From: Candidatus Poribacteria bacterium
Lineage (GTDB): Bacteria; Poribacteria; WGA-4E; PCPOR2b
Direction: 5' to 3'
DNA length: 64,000 nt
Assembly (NCBI GenBank): GCA_965247655.1
Contig: OZ252032.1
Coordinates: 1,861,101 to 1,925,100 of the forward strand
Every line of letters begins with the position of its first letter. The first letter of the stretch is position 1. The translations under genes and the position numbers were made by a program. This document shows, piece by piece, positions 25,070 through 44,091 of this stretch. The notes beneath the pieces are model-generated. The model saw nothing but the letters and a program-made list of their open reading frames with translations, had not been told where the DNA came from and did not search any database.

Positions 25070-25243
25070 CATCTATCCTTAAAAATAAAAAAAACTCCTA
25101 GAATGAACCAAAAGTGTGAAACGTGAACTGTTTTTTTTACGTTCTACATACGGATAGGGTCTACTGTGGACTCTTAAGGAGCTAATGAATGGAATAATAG
25201 CCCGATTTTAACCCCCGCCTTTATTTTAATTATTTGGAGGATC

Positions 25244-26734
25244 ATGGACTTGCTACCGAAAAAATTAGAAGCCTACCCCATTAAACCATACTTCTCTGAA
25301 CAGCAAGAACTAAATGAACGTTTGAGTGCGATTCTCCCGCCATATATATTGGAAACACCTATCGCTACGCGAGGGAAGCGTCTGTTTCGGATTCTTGTCC
25401 GATTCACTCTGATCATTTGTCTTCTGTCTTTTTTGACACTGTGTGGATTTCTAGCGCATCGCGCGGTGAAAGATAAAGATACGTTCTGGTACTACCTCAC
25501 AGAAAATCAGACCATTGTTCTGACGTTGATGCAAGGGAAGAAAGTGCAGGACACCGCAACCTATGGCGTTCTGGAAACACTCACAACCTCCGGTAAAACG
25601 ATGGAAGAGAGGCTGATTCAACTTCAGCTAGATGGATATGCCCAAAGCAACGCGCAACAAATTCCTATCATTTACGACGTAGCAGCGCAGGCGGACCACA
25701 AGAAGATCTACGAACAATTAATTCAACCGGCGATTGAACAAGCCTATCGGATTTATAACAATTTCGATCTGAAAACTGAGCAGGAAGTATATGGGATTAC
25801 CACGAATGAACTGATATATCAAAAAGGATTGAATGTGCCGGGATATAGTCCGAAGGCGTTGGAACACATGCTATTTGAAGCACGACGTTACTTCCCATTT
25901 GCGCTAATTGCCGGACGAGTTGCTGACATAGACCCATTGCTTCTGCTGAAGATTTTTGAAATTGAGACCCACTTTGATGAGACCTTAGTCGGTCTCAGTC
26001 AAACCGAAACTGGCGAAGATGATATTGGCATTGCTCAGAATAATCTGGCTGTTCTACCTAATTTGATTCGCCACATTTTGGATCCAAGTATGCCGGCATA
26101 CTCTCCCTTTTTTGAGTTTCTTAGACCTGGGAGAGGTTGGGAAATGAGAGAACAACTCACTTGGAATGAGTATTTGCCTCGCTTAGAAGAGGAGCTAGCA
26201 GGTACCTACGATCGCCAAAAAAACCCGGCTGGGAAATATTACACTAATCTTTTGAAAGCCCCTCACATCGGTGCATTCTTGGCAGCCTACCACATAAAGC
26301 GCGATAAGACCTATCGTTTCGACGAGTGTTTGGATTTTTACAGGAAAAATGCCAAAGCCCTCAAAGTTGAGCTCGATCTTAGGCAAGATCTACAGCCATA
26401 TCACTGGGCGTATTATACCTTTTACAACGGCGGTCCTAAACGTTGGCATGTGATGAGAACATATCTGGCGATGCGCCAAAATCAGGAGTTGATACCACCT
26501 GAACTTCAGGAAGCTGTGGATACGATAAAGGGGCGTAACATGGATGCACAACGGATTGGAAATAAAAACCAATATCTGAAAGAGCTCGCTTTCGACCACG
26601 CAGAAGGCAAGCTTGTTCAAAATGATGGGCTGCTTGACTATGGACTGTACGATTTCTCGCCAAATTTCAAACCTCGAGAGCTCATGTGTGGGCTTCCTCC
26701 CAACCTCGCTATGGCAAAAAAGATTGATGATTAG
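25244..26734 (+). CDS. hypothetical N-terminally membrane-anchored protein, possible lysozyme/SLT-like motif
   Basis: 496 aa; one TM (FRILVRFTLIICLLSFLTLCGFLAH); segment FEIETHFDE...GLSQTETGEDDIGIAQNN loosely resembles the SLT catalytic E...S...G-[LI]-[MA]-Q signature. Confidence 0.5.
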   Translation: MDLLPKKLEAYPIKPYFSEQQELNERLSAILPPYILETPIATRGKRLFRILVRFTLIICLLSFLTLCGFLAHRAVKDKDTFWYYLTENQTIVLTLMQGKKVQDTATYGVLETLTTSGKTMEERLIQLQLDGYAQSNAQQIPIIYDVAAQADHKKIYEQLIQPAIEQAYRIYNNFDLKTEQEVYGITTNELIYQKGLNVPGYSPKALEHMLFEARRYFPFALIAGRVADIDPLLLLKIFEIETHFDETLVGLSQTETGEDDIGIAQNNLAVLPNLIRHILDPSMPAYSPFFEFLRPGRGWEMREQLTWNEYLPRLEEELAGTYDRQKNPAGKYYTNLLKAPHIGAFLAAYHIKRDKTYRFDECLDFYRKNAKALKVELDLRQDLQPYHWAYYTFYNGGPKRWHVMRTYLAMRQNQELIPPELQEAVDTIKGRNMDAQRIGNKNQYLKELAFDHAEGKLVQNDGLLDYGLYDFSPNFKPRELMCGLPPNLAMAKKIDD

Positions 26735-26788
26735 TGCAGATGGATACGCTTGCAGAGGATACTCCCTACCCTCTGCAAGCCCGCTCAA

Positions 26789-28546
26789 ATGTCTATGCTG
26801 AGAAAATACGATTTAACGCCCTCTGTCCTACTGCTCCTCCTACCGATTATTTTCTTTTTCTTTGTCTTCCTGATATACCCTCTCCTGTACATTTTCAAAG
26901 AATCTTTCTGGATTAATAACCATCTGAGCATTGAGTACTTCAAGCTGATAGTTACGGATGAAAGTATCCGCAAGTTGGTCGTCAATAGCTTCAACATGGG
27001 CATTGTGGTAACGCTGACGACAACACTTATTACCCTGCCACTCGCATATTTCCTCACCCGCTACCGTTTCCCCGGCCGTAGCACCCTCCAAGGGATTATT
27101 CTGATTCCGATTATCATGCCGCCCTTCGTCGGGGCAATCGGCATGAAGCAGCTTTTCGGTTTGTACGGTAGCGTGAATATCTTTCTGAACAAGATTGGAC
27201 TTATCGATTTGGCGGCACCGATCGATTGGTTCGGTAGCGGATTTTGGGGAATTATCCTGCTGTCCACCCTGCATCTTTATCCGATAATGTATCTCAATGT
27301 CGTTGCAGTGCTGGCAAATGTAGACCCCAGCTTGGAGGAAGCAGCAGAAAACATGGGGGCATCGCGCTTCAGGCTTTTCCGGACGGTGACGCTTCCGCTC
27401 ATGCTCCCCGGATATTTCGCAGGTGCCATCCTAGTGTTCATTTGGGCGTTCACCGATTTGGGCACACCGCTGATTTTCAACTACAATGAAGTTATCGCCG
27501 TGCGAATCTTCCGCCAAGTTACCGATGCCAACGTCAACCCGATGGGGTATGCACTCGTCGTCTTGATTGTTGTACTGACTGCCCTTGCATTCTACATTTC
27601 CAAGCGTTGGACTGGCACCGGACGGTATGAGATGCTCGGACGTGGGCATGTCGGTTCACGTGAGATTCAAGCAAATCGTTGGATGTGTGCTATCATCTAT
27701 TGCTTCGTGGGAGTCATCATATCCATGGCGCTGTTGCCGCATATCAGTATTGTCTTGACCTCACTAACACCTGATGCTAGCCAGTGGCGGCTGAGTGTGC
27801 TGCCTCAGAGCTATACGCTGCAGCATTATTCGGATGTTTTTAGCCATGAAAGCAAACTGGAAGATACGCTACTCAGTATCAAGAATAGTTTATTCTACAG
27901 CGTGTTCAGCACACTGCTCGCCCTCGTCCTCGGAATTGTACTCTCATACCTTCTTACCCGTAGGCGCATCCCTTTCAAGAATCTGCTCGATGCTATTGCT
28001 ATGTTGCCTTTAGCCCTGCCGGGTGTTGCGCTCGCCTTTGGCTATGTGGGTAGTTTCGCGGATACGACGCTTTTGCTCCGTCATTTGCCCCAGTCCATCG
28101 TATCCATCTTAGATCCTCGACAAAACCCGATTTTACTGCTAATCATCAGTTACGCGGTGAGGCGTTTACCGTATATGCTCCGTTCAATTTACGCGGGCCT
28201 TCAGCAGACCAGTGTAACATTGGAAGAGGCATCACAGAATCTTGGCGCAAACCCAGCACGGACGCTGTATAAGATTACGCTGCCCCTTGTCATTGCCAAT
28301 GTCATCGCTGGCTCAATCCTTGTGTTCTCGTTCTCAATGCTGGAAGTTGCTGACAGCTTGATTCTTGCTATGCGAGACCAGTATAATCCGATCACCAAAG
28401 CGATTTGGAACCTGTCACAACGCCCGGTTGGTGGGGCGTATATTGCTTGTGCGTTGGGTGTGGTGGGAATGTTTATTCTGATAGCGTGCTTAGTTTCTGC
28501 GGGCCGTATCCTAGGGGGACGTTTGGGTGAGATTTTCAAGATTTGA
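26789..28546 (+). CDS. ABC transporter permease, fused two-domain (FbpB/ThiP iron(III)/thiamine family-like)
   Basis: ~585 aa, 12 predicted TM, two EAA-like loops (EEAAENMGASRFRLFRTVTLP; EEASQNLGANPARTLYKITLP); no adjacent SBP/ATPase. Confidence 0.75.
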   Translation: MSMLRKYDLTPSVLLLLLPIIFFFFVFLIYPLLYIFKESFWINNHLSIEYFKLIVTDESIRKLVVNSFNMGIVVTLTTTLITLPLAYFLTRYRFPGRSTLQGIILIPIIMPPFVGAIGMKQLFGLYGSVNIFLNKIGLIDLAAPIDWFGSGFWGIILLSTLHLYPIMYLNVVAVLANVDPSLEEAAENMGASRFRLFRTVTLPLMLPGYFAGAILVFIWAFTDLGTPLIFNYNEVIAVRIFRQVTDANVNPMGYALVVLIVVLTALAFYISKRWTGTGRYEMLGRGHVGSREIQANRWMCAIIYCFVGVIISMALLPHISIVLTSLTPDASQWRLSVLPQSYTLQHYSDVFSHESKLEDTLLSIKNSLFYSVFSTLLALVLGIVLSYLLTRRRIPFKNLLDAIAMLPLALPGVALAFGYVGSFADTTLLLRHLPQSIVSILDPRQNPILLLIISYAVRRLPYMLRSIYAGLQQTSVTLEEASQNLGANPARTLYKITLPLVIANVIAGSILVFSFSMLEVADSLILAMRDQYNPITKAIWNLSQRPVGGAYIACALGVVGMFILIACLVSAGRILGGRLGEIFKI

Positions 28547-28606
28547 TGCGTATGCGCGTGAAACGTAATGGGTCAAATGTGAGAAAAGGGGTTATTTCTT
28601 TACCTC

Positions 28607-30370
28607 TTACAGGCTCGGTTCAACATACAATGTCTTTTCATGGGTGTAAGTCACGAAGCCTGAAGCGGTTCCCTTGGGTTTGACGACATACCGAAACCAC
28701 GTATAGTCAACCGGGACATAGCTGGCATGTTGTGCTTTACTGAAGAGCGCTGCAATCTGGGCGGCTTTTAGCAGCGTTGGCATTGGAATACCCGGCTTGT
28801 TTTCAGGATTGCGAATGACAACATGTGAACCGTGAATCTGCTTTGCGTGTAACCACATATCCCGGCTTGAAGCAATCCGGCGAAGGAGTAGGTCATTTTC
28901 CTTGCTATTGCGCCCCACATAAATCTGAAAACCATCGGGCGATGTATATTTCCGAAATGCACCAGCGGATTCGCTCTGCTTGGACTGACGCTTGGTGTCT
29001 TTTATCCAACCTTTTTTTACAAACTCAGACTGAATTGCTCGAAGTTCCTTTAACCCCTTCGCCGCCTCAACCTCCGACACATAAGCATTTAATACCTCCT
29101 GCTCCGCCTCATTATCAGCAATCAACCGATGGATAACCGAAACCCCGCGTTTTGCTTTGGTGTACCTCTTGAAGTATTGTTGGGCGTTATCTGAGGGATT
29201 GAGTTGCGGATTAAGTTCGATCGATAATGCACTTAAATCTGGGCTGTAGTAGTTCTGTACCTCGATAACCGCCTGTCCTCGCTCGACTTGGTGCAAATTC
29301 GCAGTGAGGAGTTCTCCTCTGATCCGATAGTCTTCAGCCTGTTCGGCATTTGCCAAATCTTGTCGTAGTGACACCTGTTTTCGCTCCAGTGCCGCACTCA
29401 TCTTGTCCAAAACCTGACGCAAGACATTCCGCTCAGATTGCATTGTCTCATCGCGAATAACTGCGTCGTAGTAGGCAGATAGGGCTTCGCTCATCGTTTC
29501 AAAAAATCGGCTCTCGGTGTTTGGGAATTGAGCCAGTTTTAACGCAGATACAGCGACAACTTTATCTTTGTCCTCCAAGTAAGTGTGGTCGTTCGCGCTC
29601 TTCTCCGATTGGGACTGTTTGGGCGAATCGTCTGATTCGATAAGCACTTGGGGGCTGCTGCGAGAGGTCTGGAAATACGCCATAACCTGCTGATATGCCT
29701 CCCACAGGTTCGCTGAAGCGGACTGATCACCGGCGCGGGCGATAATCTCCTTAGCGAGCGTTGGGCTCAAGCCATCAATCTGATTGAAGAGGAATCGCCA
29801 ACTAACCTCCCGATTTTCAACGAGCGAAACAAAGGTCTCTTGATCTAATTTAAGTGGATGCCATTTATCCTGCTGCGGTGGCGGAGTATAGGGCAGACCG
29901 GGTAATACTTCACGATAGCGGCTCATCGTTTCGTCAATATGTTTGATGCTTTCGAGGATATTGCCGCTCGCTTCATCAACAAGGATGATATTGCCGTGCT
30001 TGCCCATAAATTCCGCGATAATCGATTTAGGTGACGTTTCGAGGATATCAGATGTAGGTTCGATAGTGAGTTTTAGGACTCGATCCAAGCCAACCTGTTC
30101 TACCGCTGTGATCTGACCACGCATAACGTGCTTTATCAGGAAGTCCGCAAAGTGGGACCTAGACTGTCCTTTCGGCGGGCGTTCAATCAGATGTGCACGG
30201 GCATGAATAGAGTGGGTTGAAATCAGCAAAAAGTGAGTCTGGGTTGACTGAGTGATTTTCAGTACAATGCTGTGAGAGTTCAACTGTTCAATATGGCGAA
30301 TGGTCCCATTCAGGATTGTATGACGGAGTTCATCCGTTACAAAATGTAAAGATAGACTATCGAATGACAT
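28607..30370 (-). CDS. Rqc2/RqcH-like NFACT-family protein (fibronectin-binding protein A homologue, ribosome quality control)
   Basis: 587 aa; NFACT-N, central coiled coil, C-terminal NFACT-R/DUF814 (GFQIYVGRNSKENDLLL ... HGSHVVI). Confidence 0.8.
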   Translation of the reverse strand: MSFDSLSLHFVTDELRHTILNGTIRHIEQLNSHSIVLKITQSTQTHFLLISTHSIHARAHLIERPPKGQSRSHFADFLIKHVMRGQITAVEQVGLDRVLKLTIEPTSDILETSPKSIIAEFMGKHGNIILVDEASGNILESIKHIDETMSRYREVLPGLPYTPPPQQDKWHPLKLDQETFVSLVENREVSWRFLFNQIDGLSPTLAKEIIARAGDQSASANLWEAYQQVMAYFQTSRSSPQVLIESDDSPKQSQSEKSANDHTYLEDKDKVVAVSALKLAQFPNTESRFFETMSEALSAYYDAVIRDETMQSERNVLRQVLDKMSAALERKQVSLRQDLANAEQAEDYRIRGELLTANLHQVERGQAVIEVQNYYSPDLSALSIELNPQLNPSDNAQQYFKRYTKAKRGVSVIHRLIADNEAEQEVLNAYVSEVEAAKGLKELRAIQSEFVKKGWIKDTKRQSKQSESAGAFRKYTSPDGFQIYVGRNSKENDLLLRRIASSRDMWLHAKQIHGSHVVIRNPENKPGIPMPTLLKAAQIAALFSKAQHASYVPVDYTWFRYVVKPKGTASGFVTYTHEKTLYVEPSL

Positions 30371-30566
30371 GAGGCAGACCTCGTGGAAGTGATGTATCGT
30401 GAATTCTCGCGCCTGCAGCAGTATCGCGTTTCTCAGCGTATCGCTCGGCGAAACGGTTGCTCATTATACCATAATTCCATAGAGAACGGCACGAAAAATC
30501 GATCTACCATGCTTCTGAGTTGATGGCTTGACTTGTAGGGGCATCTCACTGTTTCCGTTGGTAGCA

Positions 30567-30595
30567 TTGACAGCCACCTACAATTGTGTTAGAAT
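30567..30595 (+). promoter_or_regulatory. consensus sigma70-type promoter (TTGACA-17 bp-TAGAAT) upstream of aapJ
   Basis: TTGACA at 30567..30572, 17-bp spacer, TAGAAT at 30590..30595; ~95 bp upstream of the start. Confidence 0.5.
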
Positions 30596-30688
30596 TTTTG
30601 TTGAAGCCAAGCTATTTCAGGCTTTCTGAGTTTCTGACAATAGGGGTTTTCAGTTCGTCCTTATTCTAAAGTAAAAAGGAGAATTTTA

Positions 30689-31705
30689 ATGCGTAGATTT
30701 TGGTTTAGCACTTTAGTACTCGTTCTAGCTATTTCACTGATAGTGCCACCATTTGTAGGCGCGCAGGACAGTGTATTGGACAAAGTAAAAAACAGGGGAA
30801 GGCTCGTTTGCGGGGTATACGGCGGCTTGCCCGGTTTCAGTTTTCTCAGCCAAGATGGTAAGTGGAGTGGCTTTGACGTGGATTATTGTCGGGCAATCGC
30901 TGCAGCTATTCTCGGTGATCCAGATAAGGTTGAGTTCGTGCCGTTAAAGGCACCAGAACGTTTCTCCGCGCTCCAGACAGGGGAGATAGATGTCTTAATC
31001 CGAAACACTACTTGGACGCTTACCCGCGACACGCAAGTGGGGGCTGACTTCGCCCCACCTACCTTTTACGATGGGCAGGGATTCATGGTGCATAAAAAGT
31101 CCGGCATCACCTCCTTAGAGGAGTTGGCTGGAGCAAGTGTCTGTGTCACCGCTGGTAGCACGACTGAGCTAAATCTAGCGGATACGATGCGGGCTTTAGG
31201 GGTAGATTTTAACCCCGTGGTATTTGAGGAAATTGATACCCTTTACAATAGTTATGAACAGGGGCGTTGTGATGTTGTTACAAGTGATAAATCGCAGCTA
31301 GCCGCTCGTCGCAAAGTCTTTAAGGATCCGGACGCCCACGTTATCCTTGATGTAACCATCTCGAAGGAACCGTTGGGACCTGTCACCATCCACGGTGACA
31401 ACAAATGGAACGATGCCGTTAGCTGGGTTGTTTATGCCACATTCTTCGCCGAGGAGCACGGAATTACCCAATCGAATGTCAGCACTTATAAATCCAAAAA
31501 TCCAGAGATCGGACGTTTCTTGGGCAAGACTGGAGATATGGGCGGGAAACTCGGTCTGTCGAAGGATTGGGCGCATCAGGTTATCGCTGCTGTCGGCAAC
31601 TATGGTGAAATTTTTGAACGTAACCTCGCTCCTATTCGTCTGCCGCGCGGTGTCAACAAGCCTTGGACTCAAGGGGGTCTGCTGTACGCGATGCCGTTTC
31701 GTTAA
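30689..31705 (+). CDS. aapJ: general L-amino acid ABC transporter substrate-binding protein
   Basis: 338 aa with signal peptide; AapJ/BztA-like SBP; cognate permeases/ATPase lie 3.7 kb downstream. Confidence 0.8.
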   Translation: MRRFWFSTLVLVLAISLIVPPFVGAQDSVLDKVKNRGRLVCGVYGGLPGFSFLSQDGKWSGFDVDYCRAIAAAILGDPDKVEFVPLKAPERFSALQTGEIDVLIRNTTWTLTRDTQVGADFAPPTFYDGQGFMVHKKSGITSLEELAGASVCVTAGSTTELNLADTMRALGVDFNPVVFEEIDTLYNSYEQGRCDVVTSDKSQLAARRKVFKDPDAHVILDVTISKEPLGPVTIHGDNKWNDAVSWVVYATFFAEEHGITQSNVSTYKSKNPEIGRFLGKTGDMGGKLGLSKDWAHQVIAAVGNYGEIFERNLAPIRLPRGVNKPWTQGGLLYAMPFR

Positions 31706-31965
31706 TAGGTTTCGCAAACGCAGCACTATGACATCTATCGACAAGGTAAAAGGAATACCTTATGATACTTGAGGGGTGCTAATAATTATTGTCTGAATCA
31801 GGATTGTCAGGATTTAAGGATTTTCAGGATGAGATGACTCAAATTGACACCGATGAGCATTTGAGGCGAGGGCATCATTATTGATCCGATGCCGCATCGC
31901 GAGGCAAAGCAAGCTGAATCACCTATTAAACAGATGACACGCAAAACCCGGACGCTCATTTAACA

Positions 31966-32065
31966 AATCGTGCAAAGAAACCGAGTTTTGAAGTCCGAGA
32001 GGATCCGTGACCGGGGAAAAACTCGATTTCTCTGAGTTGTACTACACTTTCTTTTAACATGAGCG
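31966..32065 (+). repeat. structured intergenic repeat, copy C (5' of R-M module)
   Basis: GTGCAAAGAAACCGAGTTTTgaaGTCCgagaGGATCCGtgacCGGGGaaAAACTCGATTTC ... TTTCTTTTAACATGAGCG; near-identical to copy B. Confidence 0.65.
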
Positions 32066-32507
32066 AACCTATTTATGGGCACCCCTCATTTAGATAAGAA
32101 CGGTATCTGAAATTGTAGGAGATGCCTCCTAGTATCAATGTTCGGCAATACCTAAAAGCATGAAAAATCAACGACAAATTCTAAAAGAGAGAGACAGGGT
32201 GCCGCAAGCTATCCAAATGACGGTCGAACTCTTTTCGGGCATCGGTGGATTCCGCATCGCTGCTGAAAGGCACGGTATTCAGACGTTGTGGGCAAATGAT
32301 ATTTGTCCGAGAGCATGTCAAGTATACCGTAGTCAATTTGGAGACGCTGAAATTCGCCAAGGCGATATTCGAGCATTCGTGCATGAGATTCCTTCGCACG
32401 ATTTACTTACAGCCGGTTTTCCTTGTCAACCATTCAGTAGTGCGGGGAAAAAAAAGGGGCTTCGCGACCCTCGTGGGCATCTTTTCGCTGTTATTGTTGA
32501 TATTTTA

Positions 32508-33555
32508 GGGCCTTATGCTAGTTAGCTTCCCTTTTTTTTAGTTCCGATAAAAAAAGGGAAGCTAAAAAGTCCTCCAGTCTGTTACTATAGATGAACTTGA
32601 CAATCCATCTAAAACTGGAGGATAACCTTATGATAACCGATTTTGATGACCTCTGTCTATGGACTTATGTCATTGTTGATGACATTCTGATAAAACTCGA
32701 ACCATTACTCCGACGCCCAGGCCCCCCTCCCCCATGTAGCGATAGTGAGTTAATCACTATGATATTGGTTGCCGAATGTAAGGGGTGGGACATCGAAACA
32801 CAACTGCTATCCGACTTTAGCCAGCACCCCCATCTGTTCCCTATACTGCCTTGTCAGACCCGACTCAACCGGCGAAGACGCAATTTGGGGACAATCATCA
32901 ATCGGATTCGACAGATGCTCTTGTCAGACATTGAAGCGGCATCGGAGAAACTGTGTATTATTGATAGTTTGCCGATTCCAGTCATTCAGTTTCATCTGGC
33001 ACCTTCGTCATCAAATAATTGGTCATGCTATGGTGCCGATTATGGGCGGGTGGAATCGAGGAAACAGACCATTTTCGGCTATAAACTTCATCTGTTAGTC
33101 ACCGCAAGTGGGGTGATTGTTGATTTTGAACTTGCCCCGGCTTCTGCAACCGATTTATCGGTTGGTTACGAATTGCTCTCTGGACACCAAGATAAGCAAG
33201 TGATAGGGGATAAAGCCTATATTAGCAACCAAGTCAAAGACCAATTAGCTCAACTCAACCGTATCGATCTGATAACGGTCCCCCGACGCAACCAGAAACA
33301 GCAGATTTCCAGACAAACCAAGCGGTGGATTAACGAAATTAGGCAGAGGGTTGAAACGGTTAATGGTCAATTGAGTGAACAATTTCATATACAAAAGAAT
33401 CATGCGCATAGTTTCTGGGGGGTATGCACTCGGTTATACTCCAAACTCACCGCTCATACGCTATGCGTTTATCTCAATCAGCTATGCAAAAAAGAGGCGT
33501 TTTTACAGATTAAAGAGTTGGCGTTTCCAGTTCATTAGTAACTAGCATAAGGCCC
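32508..33555 (+). mobile_element. IS982-family insertion sequence (1048 bp) with perfect 17-bp terminal inverted repeats and 6-bp target-site duplication
   Basis: IRL GGGCCTTATGCTAGTTA 32508..32524, IRR TAACTAGCATAAGGCCC 33539..33555; TSD ATTTTA at 32502..32507 and 33556..33561; perfect 14-bp hairpin GCTTCCCTTTTTTT/AAAAAAAGGGAAGC just inside IRL (32525..32562). Confidence 0.85.
32630..33538 (+). CDS. IS982-family DDE transposase
   Basis: ~302 aa from the Met after a GGAGG RBS; motifs IIDSLPIPV, GYKLHLL, VIGDKAY resemble IS982 DDE_Tnp_1 transposases. Confidence 0.7.
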   Translation: MITDFDDLCLWTYVIVDDILIKLEPLLRRPGPPPPCSDSELITMILVAECKGWDIETQLLSDFSQHPHLFPILPCQTRLNRRRRNLGTIINRIRQMLLSDIEAASEKLCIIDSLPIPVIQFHLAPSSSNNWSCYGADYGRVESRKQTIFGYKLHLLVTASGVIVDFELAPASATDLSVGYELLSGHQDKQVIGDKAYISNQVKDQLAQLNRIDLITVPRRNQKQQISRQTKRWINEIRQRVETVNGQLSEQFHIQKNHAHSFWGVCTRLYSKLTAHTLCVYLNQLCKKEAFLQIKELAFPVH

Positions 33556-34405
33556 ATTTTAAGAAGGCATCGCCCACGTTATTTTATTTTGGAAAATGTG
33601 AAACGCTTGCTTCCAATGGAACAAGGGGATCATTTCGCCACAATGCTTGCCGCTTTGACAGCACTTGATTATCAGGTGGAATGGCGTTTAATCAATACGA
33701 TGCACTTTGGCTTACCGCAAAATCGTCAACGTGTGCTTATATTAGGCTCTTTGGGTATGACAGATGATTGCCCCGTTGTTAGACTTGCCTCATCAGAAGA
33801 TCTTTGTAGGATATTAGAAAGAAACTTTCCAATAATCAGGACTGTATCAAGCTGGACTGAGATTGAAAGACATAGTAAGAAATTTCCCAATTGGGGACTG
33901 GCTTGGAACGGACGCTTCTTTGCGGATAATATGGAATACTTCTCTGAAGCAAAGCCAATTGTACCCTTACGGCGGGTACTACAATCTACGGTTGACCCAA
34001 TTTTTGACTTCACCGAGAATACTTTGCAACGCTTAAAAGACAGCAAGCAAACTGATAAATTTGTTGAAGGTGTTCAAATTCTTTATAATCAAAATGGTGG
34101 TGCTCGCATGGGCTACACCGTGTTCGGTATTGACGGAGTTGCACCAACACTCACGTCTACAGCTAGCCGCCACTATGAACGTTACAAAGTGGGCAATTGC
34201 TATCGACGTTTGACAAATGTAGAATACGCTCGAATACAAGGATTTCCAGATCAGCACTGTTCAGCGGTTTCCATTTACAATCAATACTCTTTATATGGTA
34301 ACGCGATTCCACCTATATTTGGGAGTTGGCTCATTCATAAGATTTTACGGAATCATGTAACGACATTAAAAGAACCGAAGCAACAACAACTTCATCTTTT
34401 TCTCA

Positions 34406-35398
34406 ATGAGTCATCAAATTATGCCTACTAAGACTGAACTGCGCGGAGTACTTCATACACGGCTAGAACAAACTATGTCAGCGTTAAATCGCGCACTTCA
34501 AGAGATAAATCTTGAACGTCTTGAACCCGTTCTTTCACGTATCGGACGTGGGCGAACCTTGCCTCACTGGTACAAACAACTTTTTGAGTCGCAAGCTCTT
34601 CCCAACCTTGATGGTAAAACAGTTGGTAGCGTTGTTGAAATGCTTTTTGTCGCTGTTCTTGAAACCGTGACTTTTCAGGATATTGAAATACCGCCGCTCC
34701 ATATTAATCCTGCGCGAGGCGTTGATTTGCCGGATATTGACTTGAATATAAAGTCTCCCTCTCAAAACTACTGTACCAGTGAACCTTTTTTTTCAGCATA
34801 TGAGAGACTACTCGGTAGTGAATATGATGCCCTTATCATGCTAACTGATTATCAAACGCGCAAAACAAACCCGCCTTTGAAACTTCAGGTAATCAGGTGG
34901 CAATATCTCTTCAATACGCAATTGGCAGACTTTGCTCTGACTGCAATTGCCCGGAAACACCGCGATTGGTTGCTTAAACGGAGCGAGCCTTGGACACAAA
35001 AGATTTTTCGATTTTTGGCTTATGTCAATCAGAGCCATTGGCAAGCAGGGCATTCACTTCGTATCATTGACGCGATGCAAAACAGAGATGCAACACAACG
35101 TTTGGTGATTGCAGCGGAAAATGACTTTAGAGCAAAGAATATCCAACGCTTACACGCCGATAAAGAGGCAATACCTGATCATCAGCTAGAAAGTTTACTT
35201 TCTATAGCTGAGACTCAACCTCTAATTTTGGGAATTGTTGATGCAGCAGATAACTGGGTTGTGGAAAATTATAAAGATGTCGCTCGCCTTCCAAACGAAA
35301 ACGAATGGACGCGATTGCTTGCTAGTTCCCTAGATGGACAGATTGGAATGAGTTTTGCACTTCAATGGAGATACAATTTTGGACGGATATTTAGGTAA
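34406..35398 (+). CDS. putative type II restriction endonuclease (cognate of disrupted C5-MTase); no recognisable family
   Basis: 330-aa ORF overlapping the MTase stop by 26 bp; function inferred from position only. Confidence 0.4.
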   Translation: MSHQIMPTKTELRGVLHTRLEQTMSALNRALQEINLERLEPVLSRIGRGRTLPHWYKQLFESQALPNLDGKTVGSVVEMLFVAVLETVTFQDIEIPPLHINPARGVDLPDIDLNIKSPSQNYCTSEPFFSAYERLLGSEYDALIMLTDYQTRKTNPPLKLQVIRWQYLFNTQLADFALTAIARKHRDWLLKRSEPWTQKIFRFLAYVNQSHWQAGHSLRIIDAMQNRDATQRLVIAAENDFRAKNIQRLHADKEAIPDHQLESLLSIAETQPLILGIVDAADNWVVENYKDVARLPNENEWTRLLASSLDGQIGMSFALQWRYNFGRIFR

Positions 35399-35474
35399 TC
35401 AGCCGGCAAATATAGAAAATCAATGATGAACAACATAAAATATAAAAGCACAATCGCTCAAGCCGTACAACACT

Positions 35475-36659
35475 ATGGAAAACAGCTCACCTAAAAGTGT
35501 ATCAGAGAAAATCCCTTTCTGGCGGGATATTCGGGTCCTGCGCGTGCTGTTTCAGGTCATCTTCCTTATTGGCGTCCTCCTGTTGGCTGGTATCCTCTAC
35601 ACGAATATGTTGAGGGGACTCCGTGGTCTCGGCTTGACCTTAAATCTCGATTTTCTTGATGACGAAGCTGGCTTTGGAATATCTGAGGGGATTGCTTACG
35701 AGCCTTCGGATACCTATCTAAGAGCGTTTTGGGTGGGCGTGGTAAACACCATCAGGGTTAGTATTATAGGAATTGCATGCGCCACAATCTTAGGACTTGT
35801 TGTCGGCATCGCTCGGCTATCAAGCAACTGGTTGGTCAGACATATCGCAGCTATTTACGTCGAATGTTTTCGTAATATCCCGCTCTTGCTGCAGATTCTG
35901 TTTTGGTATACCGCTGTAATCCTTCAACTTCCCTCGGTACGGAAGAGTTTCACATTCTTAGGAGGCGTGTTTATTAACCAACGCGGGGTATATCTTCCCT
36001 CACCTCAACCCACATCGGGCGCGAAGATTTGGCTTGGTTGTCTCGCCGGAGGGTTCATTTTAGCACTGATTCTCTATTTTGTGCGGTTGAGGAAACTTCG
36101 ACAGATGGAACAGCCCGGCTTTCCTGCAAAGTGGGCTCTGCCAGCGTTTCTGTTGGTTGCCTTTGTGGGATGGTTTCTGACGCCGGGTAGACCATTTACT
36201 TTCGAGCTACCGGCTTTGAAGGGATTCAACTTCGCTGGAGGGATATACCTTTCACCCGAATTCTCCGCCCTTTTAATTGGACTTGTTATTTATACCGGGG
36301 CTTTCATCGCCGAAGTGGTGAGAAGTGGGATACAATCCGTGGCGAAGGGACAACGAGAGGCTGCTAAAGCGATAGGTCTCAGTGAATTTCAAACACTACG
36401 ATTAATTATCCTACCTCAAGCTTTGCGCGTGATCGCACCTCCACTCACCAGCCAGTATTTGAACCTCACCAAAAATTCTAGTTTAGCTGTTGCGATCGGC
36501 TTCCCAGATCTATTTAACGTCGGTAATACGATGATGAATCAAACCGGACAATCCATCCCAATTTTTGGGATGATCATGATGAGCTATCTGATTATCAGCT
36601 TGACGACATCGGCGTACATGAATTGGTACAACTACAGAATTAACCGAATCGGACGATGA
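35475..36659 (+). CDS. aapQ: general L-amino acid ABC transporter permease
   Basis: 394 aa, multi-TM, EAA-type loop (EAAKAIGLSEFQTLRLIILPQAL). Confidence 0.8.
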   Translation: MENSSPKSVSEKIPFWRDIRVLRVLFQVIFLIGVLLLAGILYTNMLRGLRGLGLTLNLDFLDDEAGFGISEGIAYEPSDTYLRAFWVGVVNTIRVSIIGIACATILGLVVGIARLSSNWLVRHIAAIYVECFRNIPLLLQILFWYTAVILQLPSVRKSFTFLGGVFINQRGVYLPSPQPTSGAKIWLGCLAGGFILALILYFVRLRKLRQMEQPGFPAKWALPAFLLVAFVGWFLTPGRPFTFELPALKGFNFAGGIYLSPEFSALLIGLVIYTGAFIAEVVRSGIQSVAKGQREAAKAIGLSEFQTLRLIILPQALRVIAPPLTSQYLNLTKNSSLAVAIGFPDLFNVGNTMMNQTGQSIPIFGMIMMSYLIISLTTSAYMNWYNYRINRIGR

Positions 36660-36674
36660 GAGGAAAAGAAGCGC

Positions 36675-37865
36675 GTGGAAGAGCGAGCACCAAATCCAGT
36701 AATTAAACCACCCACTGAATCGAAAAGCATGTTACGGTGGCTGAAGGAGAACCTCTTTAATACTTGGTATAACGCACTTTTCACCTTTTTAGCCGTTGTT
36801 TTTTTATACGTCGTCTTTAAGGGGATTTTGACTTGGGCGTTCACTGAGGCAAATTGGAACGTTATACCCGCTAACCTGCAAATTTTTCTAGTCGGTGCTT
36901 ATCCGAGAGAGGAGATATGGCGTGTATGGATTGTGATTTATACTTTGGGTCTCCTATTGGGGTTGAGTGCTGGAATCTGGGGAGGTCTAGCCCTCCGGCT
37001 TGCCCTCGTCATCGGAGGAATAGGGGGAGGAGTTGGGATTATCCTAGCCTTCTTTCCCGCTGCCCTCTCGAATAGATTCGGTTTGTTGGGCGGGGTGGCA
37101 TTGCTAGCAGGCTCTCTATTTCTGGGACGTGGCAGAAAAGAGTTGCGCCTTTGGGTTCTGGGCGGTTGGCTGCTATCATTTCCTTGGACTATGATATGGC
37201 TGCACGGATTCGCGGGCTTGCCCACCGTTTTTACAAGCAGTTGGGGCGGGCTTTTGCTAACGCTTATTCTGGCGGCTGTAGGGATTGTCGTCTCCTTTCC
37301 ATTGGGAATTCTTTTGGCTCTCGGACGGCGGAGCAATCTTCCTACGATAAAATGGGCTTCAACAGCATATATTGAAACAGTACGCGGCGTGCCCTTAGTG
37401 ACAATTCTGTTCATGGCACAGATAATGGTGCCGATTTTCCTACCTGATTTCCGCATTGACAAAATTCTACGGGCGATGCTCGGTATCACACTTTTTTCCG
37501 CAGCTTACATGGCAGAGAACGTCCGTGGAGGGTTGCAAGCGATTCCGAAAGGACAGCATGAGGCCGCCCATGCGCTGGGGCTCAACTATCCACTTACGAT
37601 GTTACTTATCATATTACCGCAGGCGCTTCGCTCTGTTATCCCGGCAATCGTTGGGCAGTTCATCAGCCTCTTTAAGGATACATCGCTGGTCACTGTCATT
37701 GGACTGCTAGACTTATTGAGTATAGCCAAAACGGTTATTGCAAACCCCGACTGGTTGGGGTTACAAACTGAAGTATATCTGTTTGCTGCGGCGATCTATT
37801 TTGTTTTTAGTTACTCAATGTCTTATATCAGTCAAAAAATTGAAGGTGCCCTGGGAGTCGGGTAG
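36675..37865 (+). CDS. aapM: general L-amino acid ABC transporter permease
   Basis: 396 aa, multi-TM, EAA loop (EAAHALGLNYPLTMLLIILPQAL). Confidence 0.8.
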   Translation: MEERAPNPVIKPPTESKSMLRWLKENLFNTWYNALFTFLAVVFLYVVFKGILTWAFTEANWNVIPANLQIFLVGAYPREEIWRVWIVIYTLGLLLGLSAGIWGGLALRLALVIGGIGGGVGIILAFFPAALSNRFGLLGGVALLAGSLFLGRGRKELRLWVLGGWLLSFPWTMIWLHGFAGLPTVFTSSWGGLLLTLILAAVGIVVSFPLGILLALGRRSNLPTIKWASTAYIETVRGVPLVTILFMAQIMVPIFLPDFRIDKILRAMLGITLFSAAYMAENVRGGLQAIPKGQHEAAHALGLNYPLTMLLIILPQALRSVIPAIVGQFISLFKDTSLVTVIGLLDLLSIAKTVIANPDWLGLQTEVYLFAAAIYFVFSYSMSYISQKIEGALGVG

Positions 37866-37909
37866 GGACGAGATTGCTTCGCGCATACTAGGAAGGGAGA
37901 TACAAAGAA

Positions 37910-38671
37910 GTGGCTGACCTTGAAAATACCGCAGATGATTCAATTATTATCTGTGAGGATGTTCATAAATGGTTTGACGATTTCCATGTACTCAAAGGAA
38001 TTACTGCCGCGTTCAAGAGAGGGGAAAAGGTTGTGATATGCGGACCTTCGGGTTCGGGCAAGTCCACCTTCATCCGTACAATAAATCGTCTGGAAACACA
38101 CCAAAGGGGTAGAATTATCGTTGATGGTATCGAACTCAGCGATGACCTTCGTAATATAGACCGTATCCGCCAAGAAGTCGGCATGGTCTTCCAACAGTTC
38201 AACCTGTTTCCCCACCTGACGGTCCTGCAAAATGTAACGTTAAGCCCTATCTGGGTGAAGAAGCTAACAAAAGGTGAAGCGGAATCGGAGGCTTTAGCGT
38301 TATTAGAGCGGGTTGGTATTGAAGAACATGCTCACAAATTTCCCGCACATATTTCGGGAGGGCAACAGCAGCGTGTGGCAATTGCAAGGGCTTTGGCAAT
38401 GCACCCCAAAATTATGCTATTCGACGAACCAACAAGTGCCCTTGACCCCGAAATGATTAACGAAGTTCTAGATGTAATGCGTGAGTTAGCTGCGTCTGGC
38501 ATAACAATGCTGGTTGTCACACATGAGATGGGTTTCGCGCGTGAGGTGGCAGATCGAATCATCTTCATCGATGAAGGGGAGATTGTTGAAGAGGCGGTGC
38601 CTGAAGTTTTCTTCGATAACCCGCAGCATGAACGCACTCGGCTTTTTATTTCCCAAACGTTACAACATTAG
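37910..38671 (+). CDS. aapP: amino acid ABC transporter ATP-binding protein
   Basis: 253 aa; Walker [10 protein letters not shown], signature [15 protein letters not shown], Walker [12 protein letters not shown]. Confidence 0.9.
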
Positions 38672-39142
38672 GAACAACTATAGTGAATTCTAAAAATAAA
38701 TAGACGCTTCTCCAGTACGCATTGTAGGAGATCCGCCTTGTGGGAGGGGAACCTTCTAAGTCCGCCTGCGAAATCAGAGGTGTCCATATAATCGGGGTTG
38801 AAAACCCCTCCCACAGCGTCCAAATAATTATGAACTTTACTATAAATCTGATAGGGACCTTCAACCCAAAAAGATGAGTGAAATAGAACCTTCGGAAAGT
38901 ATTCGTGCCATGCAAATTCAAGATCAAATCCACTGTTAAATATTTTTCATTAGAATTCTTTCTTGCATTCTTGCTTTGAATCAAGTATAATTACATTCGC
39001 AACTGTACAATGAATTAAAGAAGTGGTGTTAGGTTCAAATAGAAGCATTTCCCCCGGCTGTATGCTGTATTTTGTACCTCTTAGCGCTAAGGCTTGATTT
39101 TCATTTGCAGTTTTGAATCTTCAAGAAAGGAGGTACACACCA

Positions 39143-39343
39143 ATGGCAACAGGTCGAGTGAAATGGTTCAGTGACCAGAAAGGTTACGGATTCATCGTAA
39201 CCGACGAAGGTCAAGATGTCTTTGTCCACTATTCCAACATTGACGGTAATGGCTTCAAAACCCTTGATGAAGGACAAGAGGTCGAGTTTAATGTTGTGGA
39301 AGGGGAAAAGGGGCTCCAAGCCGAGGAAGTCAGAAAAATTTAA
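39143..39343 (+). CDS. cold-shock protein (CspA family)
   Basis: 66 aa from ATG after AAGGAGG; RNP motifs KGYGFI and VFVHY. Confidence 0.9.
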
Positions 39344-39395
39344 GGCTGATAAAGCTGACAATACTATATAAAAAAAGTAAAACCGGGGAAGAAAA

Positions 39396-39422
39396 GCTCT
39401 CAAGTAATTGAGGGCTTTTTTT
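39396..39422 (+). terminator. rho-independent terminator after csp
   Basis: GCTCTCAAgtaaTTGAGGGC stem followed by TTTTTTT. Confidence 0.6.
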
Positions 39423-39547
39423 ATTGGGCTAAACAAAATCAATGCAGGGTACCGCAGAGAACTAGCTGAGAAGCCCCTGCTGCTCTTAAAAAATCGAGCC
39501 AGATCAGTAGATCTTGTTTCGATTACTCTCCTATCATGGAAGCCGCT

Positions 39548-40060
39548 TTATTTTTTTCGGAATGCGCCCCAACCCTGACGAATTTTATTTTTCCATGTGG
39601 GTAGGTCGTCGCTATTCTCAATGCTTGCGTTTTCATCGCCTTCTGCATCGCCCTCTGTTACATGTTGGTAAGCAGGTATCTCGTCTTCTGCATCAAACTG
39701 GGGAACGTTCTGGATTAATCCAATATTACGGCGTGCTTCTTCAAAGTCCGGATTAATCATTAATGCTTGCTTCCAACAGGCGAACGCCAGTCCTGCATTG
39801 CCTTGCTTGTAACAGATAATTCCCAGCTTGTTGTACGCGTCAGGCAGGGTAGGATCGATAGATAGCGTCCGCTTAAATGCGTCGACCGCACTTTCAATTT
39901 TGCCTTGGTACATGTAAGCATTTCCAAGGTTATAGTATATCTCCGCAAGATTCGGATCTTTACGAGCGATTTCTTCCCATTGAGCAATTGCCTCGTCAAA
40001 GCGATTTTGTTTCCAATATTCAATGGCTCGGTCGTTAGCGATTTCAGCTTGCTTACTCAT
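39548..40060 (-). CDS. tetratricopeptide-repeat (TPR) protein
   Basis: ~170 aa from MSKQAEIAN; repeated W-LG-Y / A-F-P TPR patterns (YYNLGNAYMYQGKIESAVDAFKRTL ...). Confidence 0.75.
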   Translation of the reverse strand: MSKQAEIANDRAIEYWKQNRFDEAIAQWEEIARKDPNLAEIYYNLGNAYMYQGKIESAVDAFKRTLSIDPTLPDAYNKLGIICYKQGNAGLAFACWKQALMINPDFEEARRNIGLIQNVPQFDAEDEIPAYQHVTEGDAEGDENASIENSDDLPTWKNKIRQGWGAFRKK

Positions 40061-40379
40061 GAATCTTTCCAATCTGGTGGTATAGGTGGGTTGTGTAAGC
40101 TTGATGTTAGCACTCGTGAGCATCGAATCACTTACAGTTTATCTCCAATCCTTGGAGTTCGCTTAGATCATACTCGCGTTGCTCCCTTTATCAAGCCGCC
40201 TCAATATCAAGGAAGGTTATCAATTATAACATTGCTAAATAACTGTATCACATTTCGCAATTTCAGTCAACACCAAAGTCAGATAGAAATATGCCAATAG
40301 ACAAAGAGACTTGGGGGGTTCACGGGAGAGGTCCTATCGATGTCTTACAGCAGTTTCATAAACAGGCCCGATTCCATTT

Positions 40380-40874
40380 TCAGTTGATTTGGATCGTCTC
40401 TACAAGTCCCCAACTAAAGTCGAGGTAGTAATTATGTTTTTTGCTCTCAGGGACGCAGATGATGCAGCACTTACCATCGCGGGCAAAGCGATCGGTAATC
40501 GTAACAAGATTGAGCTCGTAGGAGTATATCATTTCGATAGCATCAAGGACGAGGAGATTGTGCGTTTGGAAATGTTTGTCCAGCAGATCTTCAATAGCGA
40601 TCTGTATCAGGAGGTGTATTTTTGCTTTCGCGCCGGCGTAAGCGATTGATGCCCGCTGCTTGTCTAATTCATCAAGCAGATACAGATTCAGATTTACGTA
40701 ATAATCTGTAGAATTGCCGAATTTTTCATTGAGTAGATGCTTGACCAAATTTGTCTTGCCTGACTGAAACTCTCCGATGAGACAAATCGTCCCGTGCTCA
40801 GACCCGGAATCGATATGAGCGGCTAAGGCTTGATAGGCTTCCCGTTGATTTTCATCGAGTGGGTATGTCGGCAT
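40380..40874 (-). CDS. small P-loop NTPase of unknown function
   Basis: 164 aa; Walker A GEFQSGKT, Walker B-like LLVLDAIE. Confidence 0.5.
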   Translation of the reverse strand: MPTYPLDENQREAYQALAAHIDSGSEHGTICLIGEFQSGKTNLVKHLLNEKFGNSTDYYVNLNLYLLDELDKQRASIAYAGAKAKIHLLIQIAIEDLLDKHFQTHNLLVLDAIEMIYSYELNLVTITDRFARDGKCCIICVPESKKHNYYLDFSWGLVETIQIN

Positions 40875-40961
40875 GGGATTGGTATCATCTCAGAGAGGAG
40901 ATGTTAAAAAATCCTCCCAGTGGAAGTGTGGCAGAGGAAACTCCTCCGTTGCTTTGCATTG

Positions 40962-41375
40962 TCAAAAGGTTGCCGCTTTTTCAAAGAAGTCAATCTCGAC
41001 CACATCCACATTCGCACGCCGGGCATTATCAGCGACGCGCTGGACAACCATCTCTCGAACAAATGGGATGGGGATGCGTTTGACGCGGTGGACAACTTCC
41101 TCCGTGCAACGGACTGAGGTGTTACCCAAGAATGGGCCCTCTTGTGATTTCGCTTCAGAGGGATGGTCGCACGTCTCTGGTACGAGTTGCTGCAAGCGCA
41201 TTGAAACGTAGTCGGTCACCCAACCTTTGAACGCTTCCCCTTTCTCCTCGTCAATTGCAGTCGCCTGGGGTTTCTGATCCAATTTCTGACTGATACCAAC
41301 CAGTAGATCTTCCAAGCGGTTCAAGCGGTCCTCGACCGCGGATAGTCGTTCTTCAATTTTATTTTCACTGTTCAT
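40962..41375 (-). CDS. coiled-coil protein with C-terminal PCP_red-like domain
   Basis: ~138 aa from MNSENKIEERL (GAGG RBS); C-terminus TEEVVHRVKRIPIPFVREMVVQRVADNARRANVDVVEIDFFEKA matches the PCP_red (PF08369-like) pattern. Confidence 0.5.
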   Translation of the reverse strand: MNSENKIEERLSAVEDRLNRLEDLLVGISQKLDQKPQATAIDEEKGEAFKGWVTDYVSMRLQQLVPETCDHPSEAKSQEGPFLGNTSVRCTEEVVHRVKRIPIPFVREMVVQRVADNARRANVDVVEIDFFEKAATF

Positions 41376-41496
41376 TATTTTTTTCCTCAAATGCACGGAC
41401 ATCATGCGTGATGTGTAAAACGTGAACCAACTCCTGAACCTTTGAACGAATAAGGACCTATGCAAACGGATTGAAAATATATCTGTCAGCTATATT

Positions 41497-42798: not shown

Positions 42799-42837
42799 GG
42801 TTGCCCCTTAAACGTGATATGATGTAATGTACTTCAA

Positions 42838-42862
42838 CCGCAGAGACGCAGAGAACGCAGAG
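42838..42862. promoter_or_regulatory. three tandem CGCAGAG heptads + T7 run upstream of radical SAM gene
   Basis: CCGCAGAGACGCAGAGAACGCAGAGTTTTTTT; ~40 bp 5' of the rSAM start on its strand. Confidence 0.35.
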
Positions 42863-42972
42863 TTTTTTTCATTACGTTTTGAGCCCAAGACCCCGGCGTC
42901 TGATTCCCTGAGTTAGAACAGGAACATTGAAATTCAGCAGAAGCCCAACTTGATACCGTCCCAATTTCAAAA

Positions 42973-44062: not shown

Positions 44063-44091
44063 TGGTTGACTCCGTTTATATGCTACATTTT

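Follow-up and report, generated by a model that had tools for sequence, protein, structure and literature searches.

Results

The locus described here lies in a window of 64,000 nucleotides (the whole stretch of DNA that was analysed, from Candidatus Poribacteria) and contains a putative restriction-modification (R-M) module, in which the C5-methylase gene is in two pieces. The methylase 5' fragment (32160..32507, + strand; residues 1-116) carries motifs I (FSGIGG), IV (PCQPFS) and V, and the 3' fragment (33562..34431, + strand; residues 117-405) carries motifs VI (ENV) and VIII (QNRQR), the target-recognition region and motifs IX and X (GNAIPP). Between them lies an IS982-family insertion sequence of 1,048 bp (32508..33555, + strand), bordered by a left (32502..32507) and a right (33556..33561) copy of the target duplication ATTTTA. 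A full-length gene for a putative NspV-family restriction endonuclease of 325 aa follows (34421..35398, + strand). The module sits within the genes of an ABC amino-acid transporter, with the substrate-binding protein gene upstream (30689..31705, + strand; its orthologue on the related contig L001 has the PF00497 SBP_bac_3 domain) and the genes for the transporter's two permeases and its ATPase downstream (35475..38671, + strand). The order substrate-binding protein, methylase, endonuclease, permease is kept in the related loci L001 to L005, L007, L008, L051 and L090/L091.

The left terminal inverted repeat of the element, GGGCCTTATGCTAGTTA (32508..32524, + strand; 17 bp), has its exact reverse complement at the right end (33539..33555, - strand). 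This 17-mer occurs only twice in the 64-kb window, even with three mismatches allowed; shuffled sequence gave a mean of 0.12 matches, and none of 100 shuffles gave two or more. The transposase gene (32630..33538, + strand; 302 aa) has the same orientation as the methylase gene. Its start could be ATG 32630 (302 aa) or ATG 32591 (315 aa), the former being the most likely, with a GGAGG at 32617-32621, 8 nt upstream; the exact 302-aa protein is recorded in ERZ26167216. The transposase scores 202.4 bits against the NCBIfam IS982 model NF033520 (cutoff 130) and covers 242 of its 243 profile positions (1-242); the models that follow in rank are for IS5, with no more than 54 bits and under their own cutoffs. 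The transposase also matches PF13612 and PF01609. Residues D112, D194 and E242 are among 13 acidic residues invariant across 11 related elements, and their contexts (IDS, GDKAY and RxxVE) are those typical of a DDE triad.

The size, inverted-repeat and duplication ranges of the IS982 family are those of ISfinder, and the element fits the family layout in its length of about 1 kb, single ORF, 17/17 inverted repeat and short AT-rich duplication of 6 bp, checked against the empty site, as well as in its NF033520 match and in conserved D, D and E residues that are candidates for the triad. It differs in its ends, which read GGGCC..., unlike those of the lactococcal IS982 prototype, and in a perfect hairpin with a 17-bp stem directly inside its left end, ahead of the transposase gene (32522..32565, + strand; arms 32522-32538 and 32549-32565), whose RNA fold has a predicted energy of -28 kcal/mol (z = -3.35).

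The ORF of the methylase 5' fragment continues for five codons into the IS, to a stop at 32525, and the 3' fragment lacks a good start codon, the earliest in-frame one being TTG 33589. Deletion in silico of the IS and one ATTTTA yields a 1,218-nt in-frame ORF of 405 aa, reading ...HLFAVIVDILRRHRPRYFILENVKRLL.... The restored methylase matches PF00145 with 222.5 bits (cutoff 22, E = 1.2e-65) over profile positions 3-320 of 324 and residues 21-375, in one stretch over the junction, and TIGR00675 with 230.5 bits (cutoff 100.65), again continuously over the junction. It has the FSGIGG, GFPCQPFS, ENV, QNRQR and GNAIPP motifs, and the intact L001 orthologue has the same ones. The IS entered at ATTTTA between motifs V and VI of the methylase, duplicating 6 bp. 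A previous sequence-only reading of this DNA had proposed a C5-methyltransferase split by a 1048-bp IS982-family insert with perfect 17-bp repeats and a 6-bp ATTTTA duplication, and these claims hold: the insert, repeats and duplication are read directly from the sequence, the transposase lies above the curated NF033520 cutoff, and the two fragments join into the PF00145 and TIGR00675 matches. FSGIGG and PCQPFS fall before the IS and ENV, QNRQR and GNAIPP after it, as had been stated, and excision restores the frame, as had been predicted, to give the 405-aa ORF. That reading had also staked its case on the restored ORF aligning to C5-methyltransferases over the junction, where the PF00145 match is unbroken.

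It is very improbable, in our judgement, that the two methylase fragments are made separately and reassemble into an active enzyme, so that protection is kept. The split between motifs V and VI does leave each motif whole in one fragment, and two-part C5-methylases exist: M.AquI naturally consists of two polypeptides, and the halves of M.BspRI/M.BsuRI, once detached, complement each other in vivo. However, in the 3' fragment ENV is preceded by neither an ATG nor a GTG start, and TTG 33589 is without a nearby ribosome-binding sequence. A transposase-methylase fusion is not possible either, since the frame of 33589 differs from that of the transposase. Furthermore, to our knowledge the C5-methylases that function when split are divided in the variable region that separates motif VIII from motif IX, outside the catalytic domain, whereas the split here is inside it.

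Two metagenome contigs, L001 and L002, are 98-99% identical to the window and colinear with it, and have an uninterrupted methylase gene with one ATTTTA. Their alignment with the window breaks exactly at 32507/33556, and empty sites are also present in L087 to L091. The closest endonuclease allele, that of L087 (4 aa different), adjoins an intact 405-aa methylase. The recent and precise transposition proposed in the sequence-only reading can thus be seen directly, in empty-site alleles with a single ATTTTA. The absence of the window allele from public collections, and the fact that IS copies are repeats, could also suggest that mis-assembly of a repeat placed the IS in the methylase gene. We find this hardly credible: the 6 bp that occur once in the empty alleles are perfectly duplicated here, and excision restores the frame exactly, neither of which a mis-join would produce.

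That reading had also called for further copies of the IS to be looked for on other contigs, and one was found, at the unrelated locus L006; it is 99.3% identical and its transposase is identical. The presence of this near-identical copy at another locus indicates that the element is mobile. The L006 copy is without a clean target duplication, and related IS copies have TAnTA on both flanks. In JGI metagenomes, the same terminal 17-mer ends ten complete distant relatives (about 64-66% identical), which have at most two mismatches at the opposite end, and fragment relatives are up to 69% identical. A search of these metagenomes with the 24-nt IS end gave zero matches, and one with the 17-nt repeat gave the distant relatives (about 64-69% identical) and chance hits, with nothing closer.

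The endonuclease ORF is free of internal stops and frameshifts. Read from the alternative ATG 34406, it would encode 330 aa; most homologues begin at MPTK, corresponding to ATG 34421, so that the overlap with the methylase stop is likely 11 bp. Of the earlier description of an intact downstream ORF overlapping the methylase gene by 26 bp, the intactness stands and the overlap is thus likely to be shorter; in some relatives the two genes have zero overlap. The PF27258 'NspV' domain is precomputed for all of the best 120 homologues, including P0001 (96% identical) and the closest allele, and the core of the window endonuclease itself weakly matches NF052465, a model for type II restriction endonucleases. 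Its placement in the NspV family, which is made through homologues 96-99% identical to it, would be safe in practice. In a set of 80 genomes spanning many phyla, the endonuclease gene is, wherever upstream sequence is present, almost always preceded directly by a C5-methylase gene in the same orientation; the pair is conserved in about 70 loci. The conserved gene pair and the NspV-labelled homologues bear out the type II R-M module of the earlier description.

The isoschizomers of NspV are BstBI, AsuII and SfuI. The site recognised by NspV is TTCGAA (PMC2779907), and we infer that the window system recognises the same site. TTCGAA does not occur in the 64-kb window, where 17.3 occurrences are expected (Poisson P = 3e-8), and it is the sole hexamer of 4,096 to be missing; TTCGA is followed 133 times by C, G or T and not once by A. 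In the Poribacteria loci as a whole, TTCGAA was observed 6 times against 82.7 expected, an approximately 14-fold depletion that leaves about one site per 53 kb, and some 100 sites are likely to remain per genome. The observed/expected ratio is 0.07 in Poribacteria, 0.07 in the cyanobacterial hosts and 0.65 in the Planctomycetota hosts of this family. Microcystis has been reported to avoid TTCGAA as well, with one site per 209 kb (PMC2779907).

The endonuclease of the window has two private substitutions, G33E (34503) and L217S (35055) in the 330-aa numbering, at which 12 of 12 related alleles agree with one another and differ from it. Position 33 is G in 206 of the 217 sequences of the family alignment, and position 217 is invariably hydrophobic and S in none; over the 3' 840 bp of the gene, L217S is the sole difference from L087. 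These radical changes at conserved positions lend some support to the possibility that the endonuclease is inactive. The predicted structure of the protein has a catalytic core too poor to place either substitution. With four departures from conserved columns, compared with 0-5 (mean 0.7) in close relatives, the window allele is unusual, short of being an extreme outlier. The pN/pS of the endonuclease gene relative to L001 is 0.24, equal in practice to the long-term value of 0.23, and the non-synonymous to synonymous counts are identical on the window and L001 lineages (6:7 on each), so that there is no signal of relaxed selection in the rates. We also considered D211H as an inactivating mutation, position 211 being D in 98% of the best 119 homologues, and rejected it because H211 occurs in alleles with an intact methylase; it is common to P0274, P0276 and P0284, all beside intact methylases, and N is also found at this position. 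The R-M genes have a higher density of private changes than the genes that flank them, in small numbers and among alleles that are recombination mosaics.

Exact look-ups in public data of the 330-aa and 325-aa forms of the endonuclease and of the 121-aa methylase fragment gave no match. The absence of the window's own allele from public records, together with the intact methylase on every related contig found and the resulting dominance of IS-free alleles in public data, could mean that the IS-bearing allele is in the minority or very recent in a heterogeneous population, or that it marks a dead-end lineage whose carriers are dying or being outcompeted. That the event is very recent is indeed indicated by the perfect inverted repeats and duplication and by the otherwise intact methylase motifs. 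However, the window allele differs from all 12 relatives at 10 further positions in the methylase and endonuclease genes, which marks it as a distinct lineage rather than a single-read variant of some strain already sampled. We consider a minority or dying allele an unlikely account of the locus.

Discussion

Our analysis suggests that the locus is a chromosomal type II R-M operon of the NspV type whose methylase was recently knocked out by an IS982-family element, and that the cell probably survives through a combination of few remaining recognition sites, a weakened or silent endonuclease and repair. According to a survey of R-M systems, loss of the methylase is lethal only if a site is available and the endonuclease is both functional and expressed (Oliveira et al., PMC4176335). 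With few TTCGAA sites left, the damage load in an unmethylated cell would be low. The endonuclease would probably be weakened or silent, owing to G33E and L217S and to the loss of translation upstream: its start codon sits inside the 3' frame of the methylase, which is now untranslated, so that translational coupling, if there was any, has been lost. The breaks that are still made would be repaired by the cell. The decay of the R-M module would then be in its early stages, the methylase having gone ahead of any visible truncation of the endonuclease.

An attenuated or unexpressed endonuclease is most likely the reason for survival, with the depletion of sites making the loss of the methylase tolerable at least in part. 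The near-absence of TTCGAA softens, without removing, the paradox of a lethal orphan endonuclease, since about 100 sites per genome are likely; at around one site per 53 kb in the lineage, depletion alone would be insufficient for survival with a fully active enzyme. The escapes from lethality listed in the sequence-only reading, namely an inactive endonuclease, protection by another methylase or a heterogeneous population, are all retained here; TTCGAA depletion is added to them, and endonuclease inactivity gains the two private substitutions. Transcription might still reach the endonuclease gene, because the transposase gene is co-directional with the operon and a scan of the locus predicted no clear terminator, making read-through possible. 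A promoter scan gave only weak consensus matches (15 sites, compared with 7.9 ± 3.2 in shuffles) and is not used as evidence. Concerning the addictive behaviour of R-M systems, that the IS-bearing allele exists at all argues against killing, or at least against complete killing, at this locus, the low site counts and the endonuclease substitutions being possible reasons.

It is also conceivable, although we regard it as a long shot, that the endonuclease is active and expressed and that TTCGAA has been purged so fully that the methylase became dispensable. If this were true, the locus would represent restriction without modification, with a six-base cutter serving as a stand-alone defence in a genome of 49% GC, and the IS insertion would mark the moment at which the methylase-free state became permissible. 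PacI is a restriction enzyme without a companion methylase, whose host genome is without its site, and the window endonuclease resembles it in having no working companion methylase and few host sites. The PacI site is 8 bp long and AT-only in a GC-rich genome, so that its absence is nearly free, whereas a genome of 49% GC would have to lose a 6-bp site by active purging, and the Poribacteria relatives of the window, unlike the PacI host, retain about one TTCGAA per 53 kb.

The least unlikely of the alternatives is that a second methylase encoded elsewhere (another TTCGAA enzyme, a TCGA enzyme or a CpG methylase) protects TTCGAA in trans, in which case the endonuclease would remain an active defence and the broken methylase would be redundant. 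The window is also depleted in further palindromes, namely GGCGCC, CYCGRG, GTTAAC, GTCGAC and ATGCAT, implying that the genome hosts or has hosted many R-M systems, and sponge symbionts have been described as rich in R-M genes (PMC5099237). Protection in trans has also been raised for solitary endonucleases in general (Oliveira et al., PMC4176335). A tblastn search of the 64-kb window with the methylase, together with a scan for motifs, revealed no second C5-methylase, nor any candidate of the DPPY/NPPY type. The closest relatives all keep their cognate methylase intact, which argues that it is not redundant in them, and we consider protection in trans unlikely.

NspV-type (TTCGAA) systems share with the module described here the PF27258 homologues, the pairing with a C5-methylase and the avoidance of TTCGAA by the host; the differences are that the methylase is interrupted here, that the host belongs to the Poribacteria instead of the cyanobacteria, and that the recognition site is a presumed one. 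A cyanobacterial host had at first been considered, given the NspV name and the GC content, and was rejected since the genomes closest to the window are those of Candidatus Poribacteria. A parallel is found in Microcystis aeruginosa NIES-843, in which four R-M-related loci are disrupted by IS elements, five restriction enzymes are solitary and TTCGAA is extremely rare (PMC2779907). Both cases combine IS-disrupted R-M genes with rarity of TTCGAA; the organism and the IS are different, and here the pre-insertion allele allows the event to be reconstructed base by base. More generally, 731 solitary endonucleases were counted in 2,342 chromosomes, and it was concluded that such genes seldom arise by recent decay of complete systems (Oliveira et al., PMC4176335). 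The window resembles these in having a restriction gene left without a working cognate methylase, but is a clear case in which recent decay has produced one.

The knock-out of a methylase gene by an IS is in itself an ordinary kind of gene decay, and the locus illustrates current understanding rather than altering it. What sets it apart is that the methylase was lost first, an order of events that should be lethal and is seldom observed. The host is an uncultivated sponge symbiont, and the allele that preceded the insertion can be consulted, as can another copy of the IS. The locus brings together three topics that are usually separate: the activity of IS elements, how R-M systems decay and the long-term avoidance of restriction sites. 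It also provides the alleles with which to gauge how much endonuclease activity must be lost before the methylase can be: that of the window, its E33G and S217L revertants, P0284 and the restored methylase. Finally, it documents a near-complete avoidance of TTCGAA in Poribacteria and gives a probable TTCGAA specificity to a widespread and mostly unnamed family of proteins.

Results

The module had been described, in a reading made from the sequence, as a type II restriction-modification (R-M) pair whose C5-methylase gene (32160..34431) is split cleanly by an IS982-family element (32508..33555), and the sequence is as that reading had it. Two copies of the target duplication ATTTTA (32502-32507 and 33556-33561, by sequence reading) enclose a 1,048-bp segment with ends GGGCCTTATGCTAGTTA (32508-32524) and its exact reverse complement (33539-33555); this 17-mer has only two matches in the window even at three mismatches, while shuffles average 0.12. 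When the segment and one ATTTTA copy are deleted, the result is a 1,218-nt ORF (405 aa), which matches PF00145 (E 1.2e-65, profile positions 3-320 of 324) and the C5-methylase model TIGR00675, in both cases in a single stretch over the junction. Motifs I and IV lie 5' of the element and motifs VI, VIII and X lie 3' of it. The ORF inside the segment scores 202 bits against a cutoff of 130 with the curated NCBIfam IS982-family transposase model. Mis-assembly as the source of this arrangement is excluded in practice, since the exact duplication and the in-frame restoration speak against it.

The insertion in the methylase gene is a real and recent event, close relatives holding an uninterrupted gene, and the transposition was as precise as had been proposed. 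Two ENA metagenome contigs, L001 and L002, encode P0001, the downstream protein's best homologue (96% identical); they align colinearly with the window for more than 17 kb, at 98-99% nucleotide identity. The break in this alignment falls exactly at 32507/33556, where the two segments share 6 bp of subject coordinates: ATTTTA, in a single copy. Two endonuclease alleles closer than P0001, P0284 and P0276 (4 and 5 aa different), adjoin an intact 405-aa methylase gene. The window's own allele had no match in any collection searched.

The element is mobile: a near-identical copy (99.3%, same ends) was found at an unrelated locus in contig L006, encoding a transposase identical to the 302-aa protein of the window. 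Ten complete distant relatives from JGI metagenomes are about 64-66% identical (shorter fragments up to 69%) and share the 17-nt terminus at one end, with at most two mismatches at the other, which supports the element's boundaries; in 11 such elements the transposase residues D112, D194 and E242 do not vary. Distant relatives sharing the exact 17-nt end (L095, L110, L111, L120, L125, L126, L129, L135, L137 and L144) have TAnTA-like pentamers on either side, as in TAATA|IS|TATTA, whose middle base is often not the same left and right, so that the flanks are not clean duplications; those of the L006 copy are TAATTA (2873-2878) and TATTAG (3927-3932). The element may prefer such targets, or its true ends may lie a few bases further out. 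A predicted perfect hairpin (32522..32565; 17-bp stem, 10-nt loop) lies immediately within the left end, before the start of the transposase gene, and overlaps the final 3 nt of the inverted repeat. It lacks a U-tail, which rules out a canonical terminator, and a possible effect is to reduce read-through into the transposase from the host gene.

No family in the local Pfam copy matched the downstream gene, and the newer Pfam family PF27258 (NspV) is found on all of its best 120 homologues; NspV recognizes TTCGAA (PMC2779907). A scan of one genome per species gave 136 relatives, the closest on Candidatus Poribacteria chromosomes (90% and 89% identical), so that the host is a sponge-associated poribacterium. 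Almost all loci that include upstream sequence have a methylase homologue directly 5' of the endonuclease gene on the same strand, a conserved M-then-R operon that upholds the proposed pairing. The 26-bp overlap proposed between the downstream ORF and the methylase stop is likely to be 11 bp, with a start at ATG 34421, as most homologues begin with MPTK. The methylase match is split between reading frames beside a full-length endonuclease in L043 (8864-9939), L086 (1317-2388) and L048 (1835-2921), and in L021 (10001-10837) the endonuclease match does not begin until residue 48. Such loci may show other stages of decay, or errors in the sequencing of draft or nanopore MAGs.

In the genus-level clade of the window, the module is flanked by binding-protein and permease genes of an ABC transporter. 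Here (30689..38671, same strand) it lies between a substrate-binding-protein gene and two permease genes and an ATPase gene of an ABC amino-acid transporter, a position kept in L001-L005, L007, L008, L051, L090 and L091; the pair sits elsewhere in more distant Poribacteria. Because of this embedding, the element could also alter transporter gene expression. Some relatives carry an extra 345-371-aa gene between the binding-protein and methylase genes (L003 5614-6729; L004 5665-6702, DUF932; L090 3680-4717; L091 1105-2142, as two ORFs), in place of which the window and L001 have a 454-bp intergenic region.

TTCGAA is absent from the 64-kb window, where a maximal-order Markov model predicts 17.3 occurrences (Poisson P = 3e-8). 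No palindrome is more depleted, and of all 4,096 hexamers it alone is absent; the pentamer TTCGA occurs 133 times on both strands, followed by C, G or T and never by A. Across 17 Poribacteria loci the ratio is 0.07 (6 observed, 82.7 expected), as it is in six cyanobacterial loci, and the site is little depleted in Planctomycetota that host the same system (0.65). This depletion supports TTCGAA as the module's putative specificity and points to a long residence of the system in Poribacteria. Other palindromes are also strongly under-represented in the window (1..64000; observed versus Markov-expected): GGCGCC (1, 9.0), GTTAAC (2, 11.3), GTCGAC (3, 11.8), CTCGAG (3, 10.4), CCCGGG (4, 12.8) and ATGCAT (4, 13.0), with CCCGAG/CTCGGG (3, 19, both strands) completing a CYCGRG pattern; judging from these counts, several other restriction specificities probably shaped this genome.

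The endonuclease ORF is full length, and the rate measures give no signal of relaxed selection: pN/pS is 0.24 against L001 and 0.23 against a distant relative, and each of the two lineages has 6 non-synonymous and 7 synonymous changes assigned to it. D211H (330-aa numbering) was rejected as an inactivating change, being common to alleles that adjoin intact methylases. Ten positions in the two genes set the window apart from all 12 related alleles, and they give three endonuclease changes: A10T, at a variable position; G33E, where 206 of 217 family members have G; and L217S, where the family always has L, I, F, M or Y and never S. Over the final 840 bp of the gene, L217S alone separates the window from L087. 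A unique residue at a conserved column is lacking in 39 of the 41 family members that have their nearest relative at 90-97% identity; the window allele scores 1, in the tail without being extreme. In a structure model with a low-confidence core, the changed residues could not be placed relative to an active site, and no fold match was obtained. The R-M alleles (32160..35398) are recombination mosaics: the methylase gene is nearer L001 (14 differences) than L087 (about 22), unlike the endonuclease 3' 840 bp, one base from L087. Four private changes fall within 18 bp (32218-32235), and the R-M genes are 86-87% identical in nucleotides to those of L004, the flanking transporter genes only 74-78%.

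Elsewhere in the window, a single ORF (13954..15837, minus strand) encodes a 627-aa protein with leucine-rich repeats and cohesin, dockerin and FlgD-Ig domains, near ORFs for sarcosine-oxidase-like alpha and gamma subunits (8254..11873, plus strand). Sponge symbionts are frequently noted to have eukaryote-like repeat proteins of this sort.

Discussion

An intact endonuclease gene beside a broken partner methylase would be expected to be lethal, a paradox that the sequence-only reading had raised. Loss of methylation is dangerous only where sites exist (PMC4176335), and the missing TTCGAA sites ease the paradox without removing it: at an estimated one site per 53 kb, a 5-6 Mb genome would still hold on the order of 100, so site depletion lowers the cost of methylase loss but does not abolish it. 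A trans-acting methylase elsewhere in the genome may protect these sites, although none was found within the 64-kb window, and population heterogeneity may explain the IS-bearing allele. Complementation between the two methylase fragments is unlikely, the 3' fragment having no usable start. The most likely single reason for survival, judged from the alleles compared, would be an attenuated endonuclease, weakened by the candidate substitutions G33E and L217S. A second, compatible reason is that endonuclease translation may have dropped, since in the gene layout its start lies within the 3' methylase frame, now untranslated, and lacks an obvious ribosome-binding sequence.

Earlier work, for example on Microcystis aeruginosa (PMC2779907), has described R-M loci disrupted by insertion sequences, extreme avoidance of TTCGAA and solitary restriction genes, and solitary endonucleases have been surveyed (PMC4176335). 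The C5-methylase, the NspV-family gene and the IS982 element are ordinary members of known families. What was first observed is confirmed and its interpretation supported, and to these our analysis adds the host, the putative specificity, the missing target site and two candidate attenuating substitutions. Somewhat unusual are the order of loss, with the methylase going first and the endonuclease ORF left intact, and the completeness of the record, in which the empty site, another copy of the IS and the private substitutions of the endonuclease are all available.
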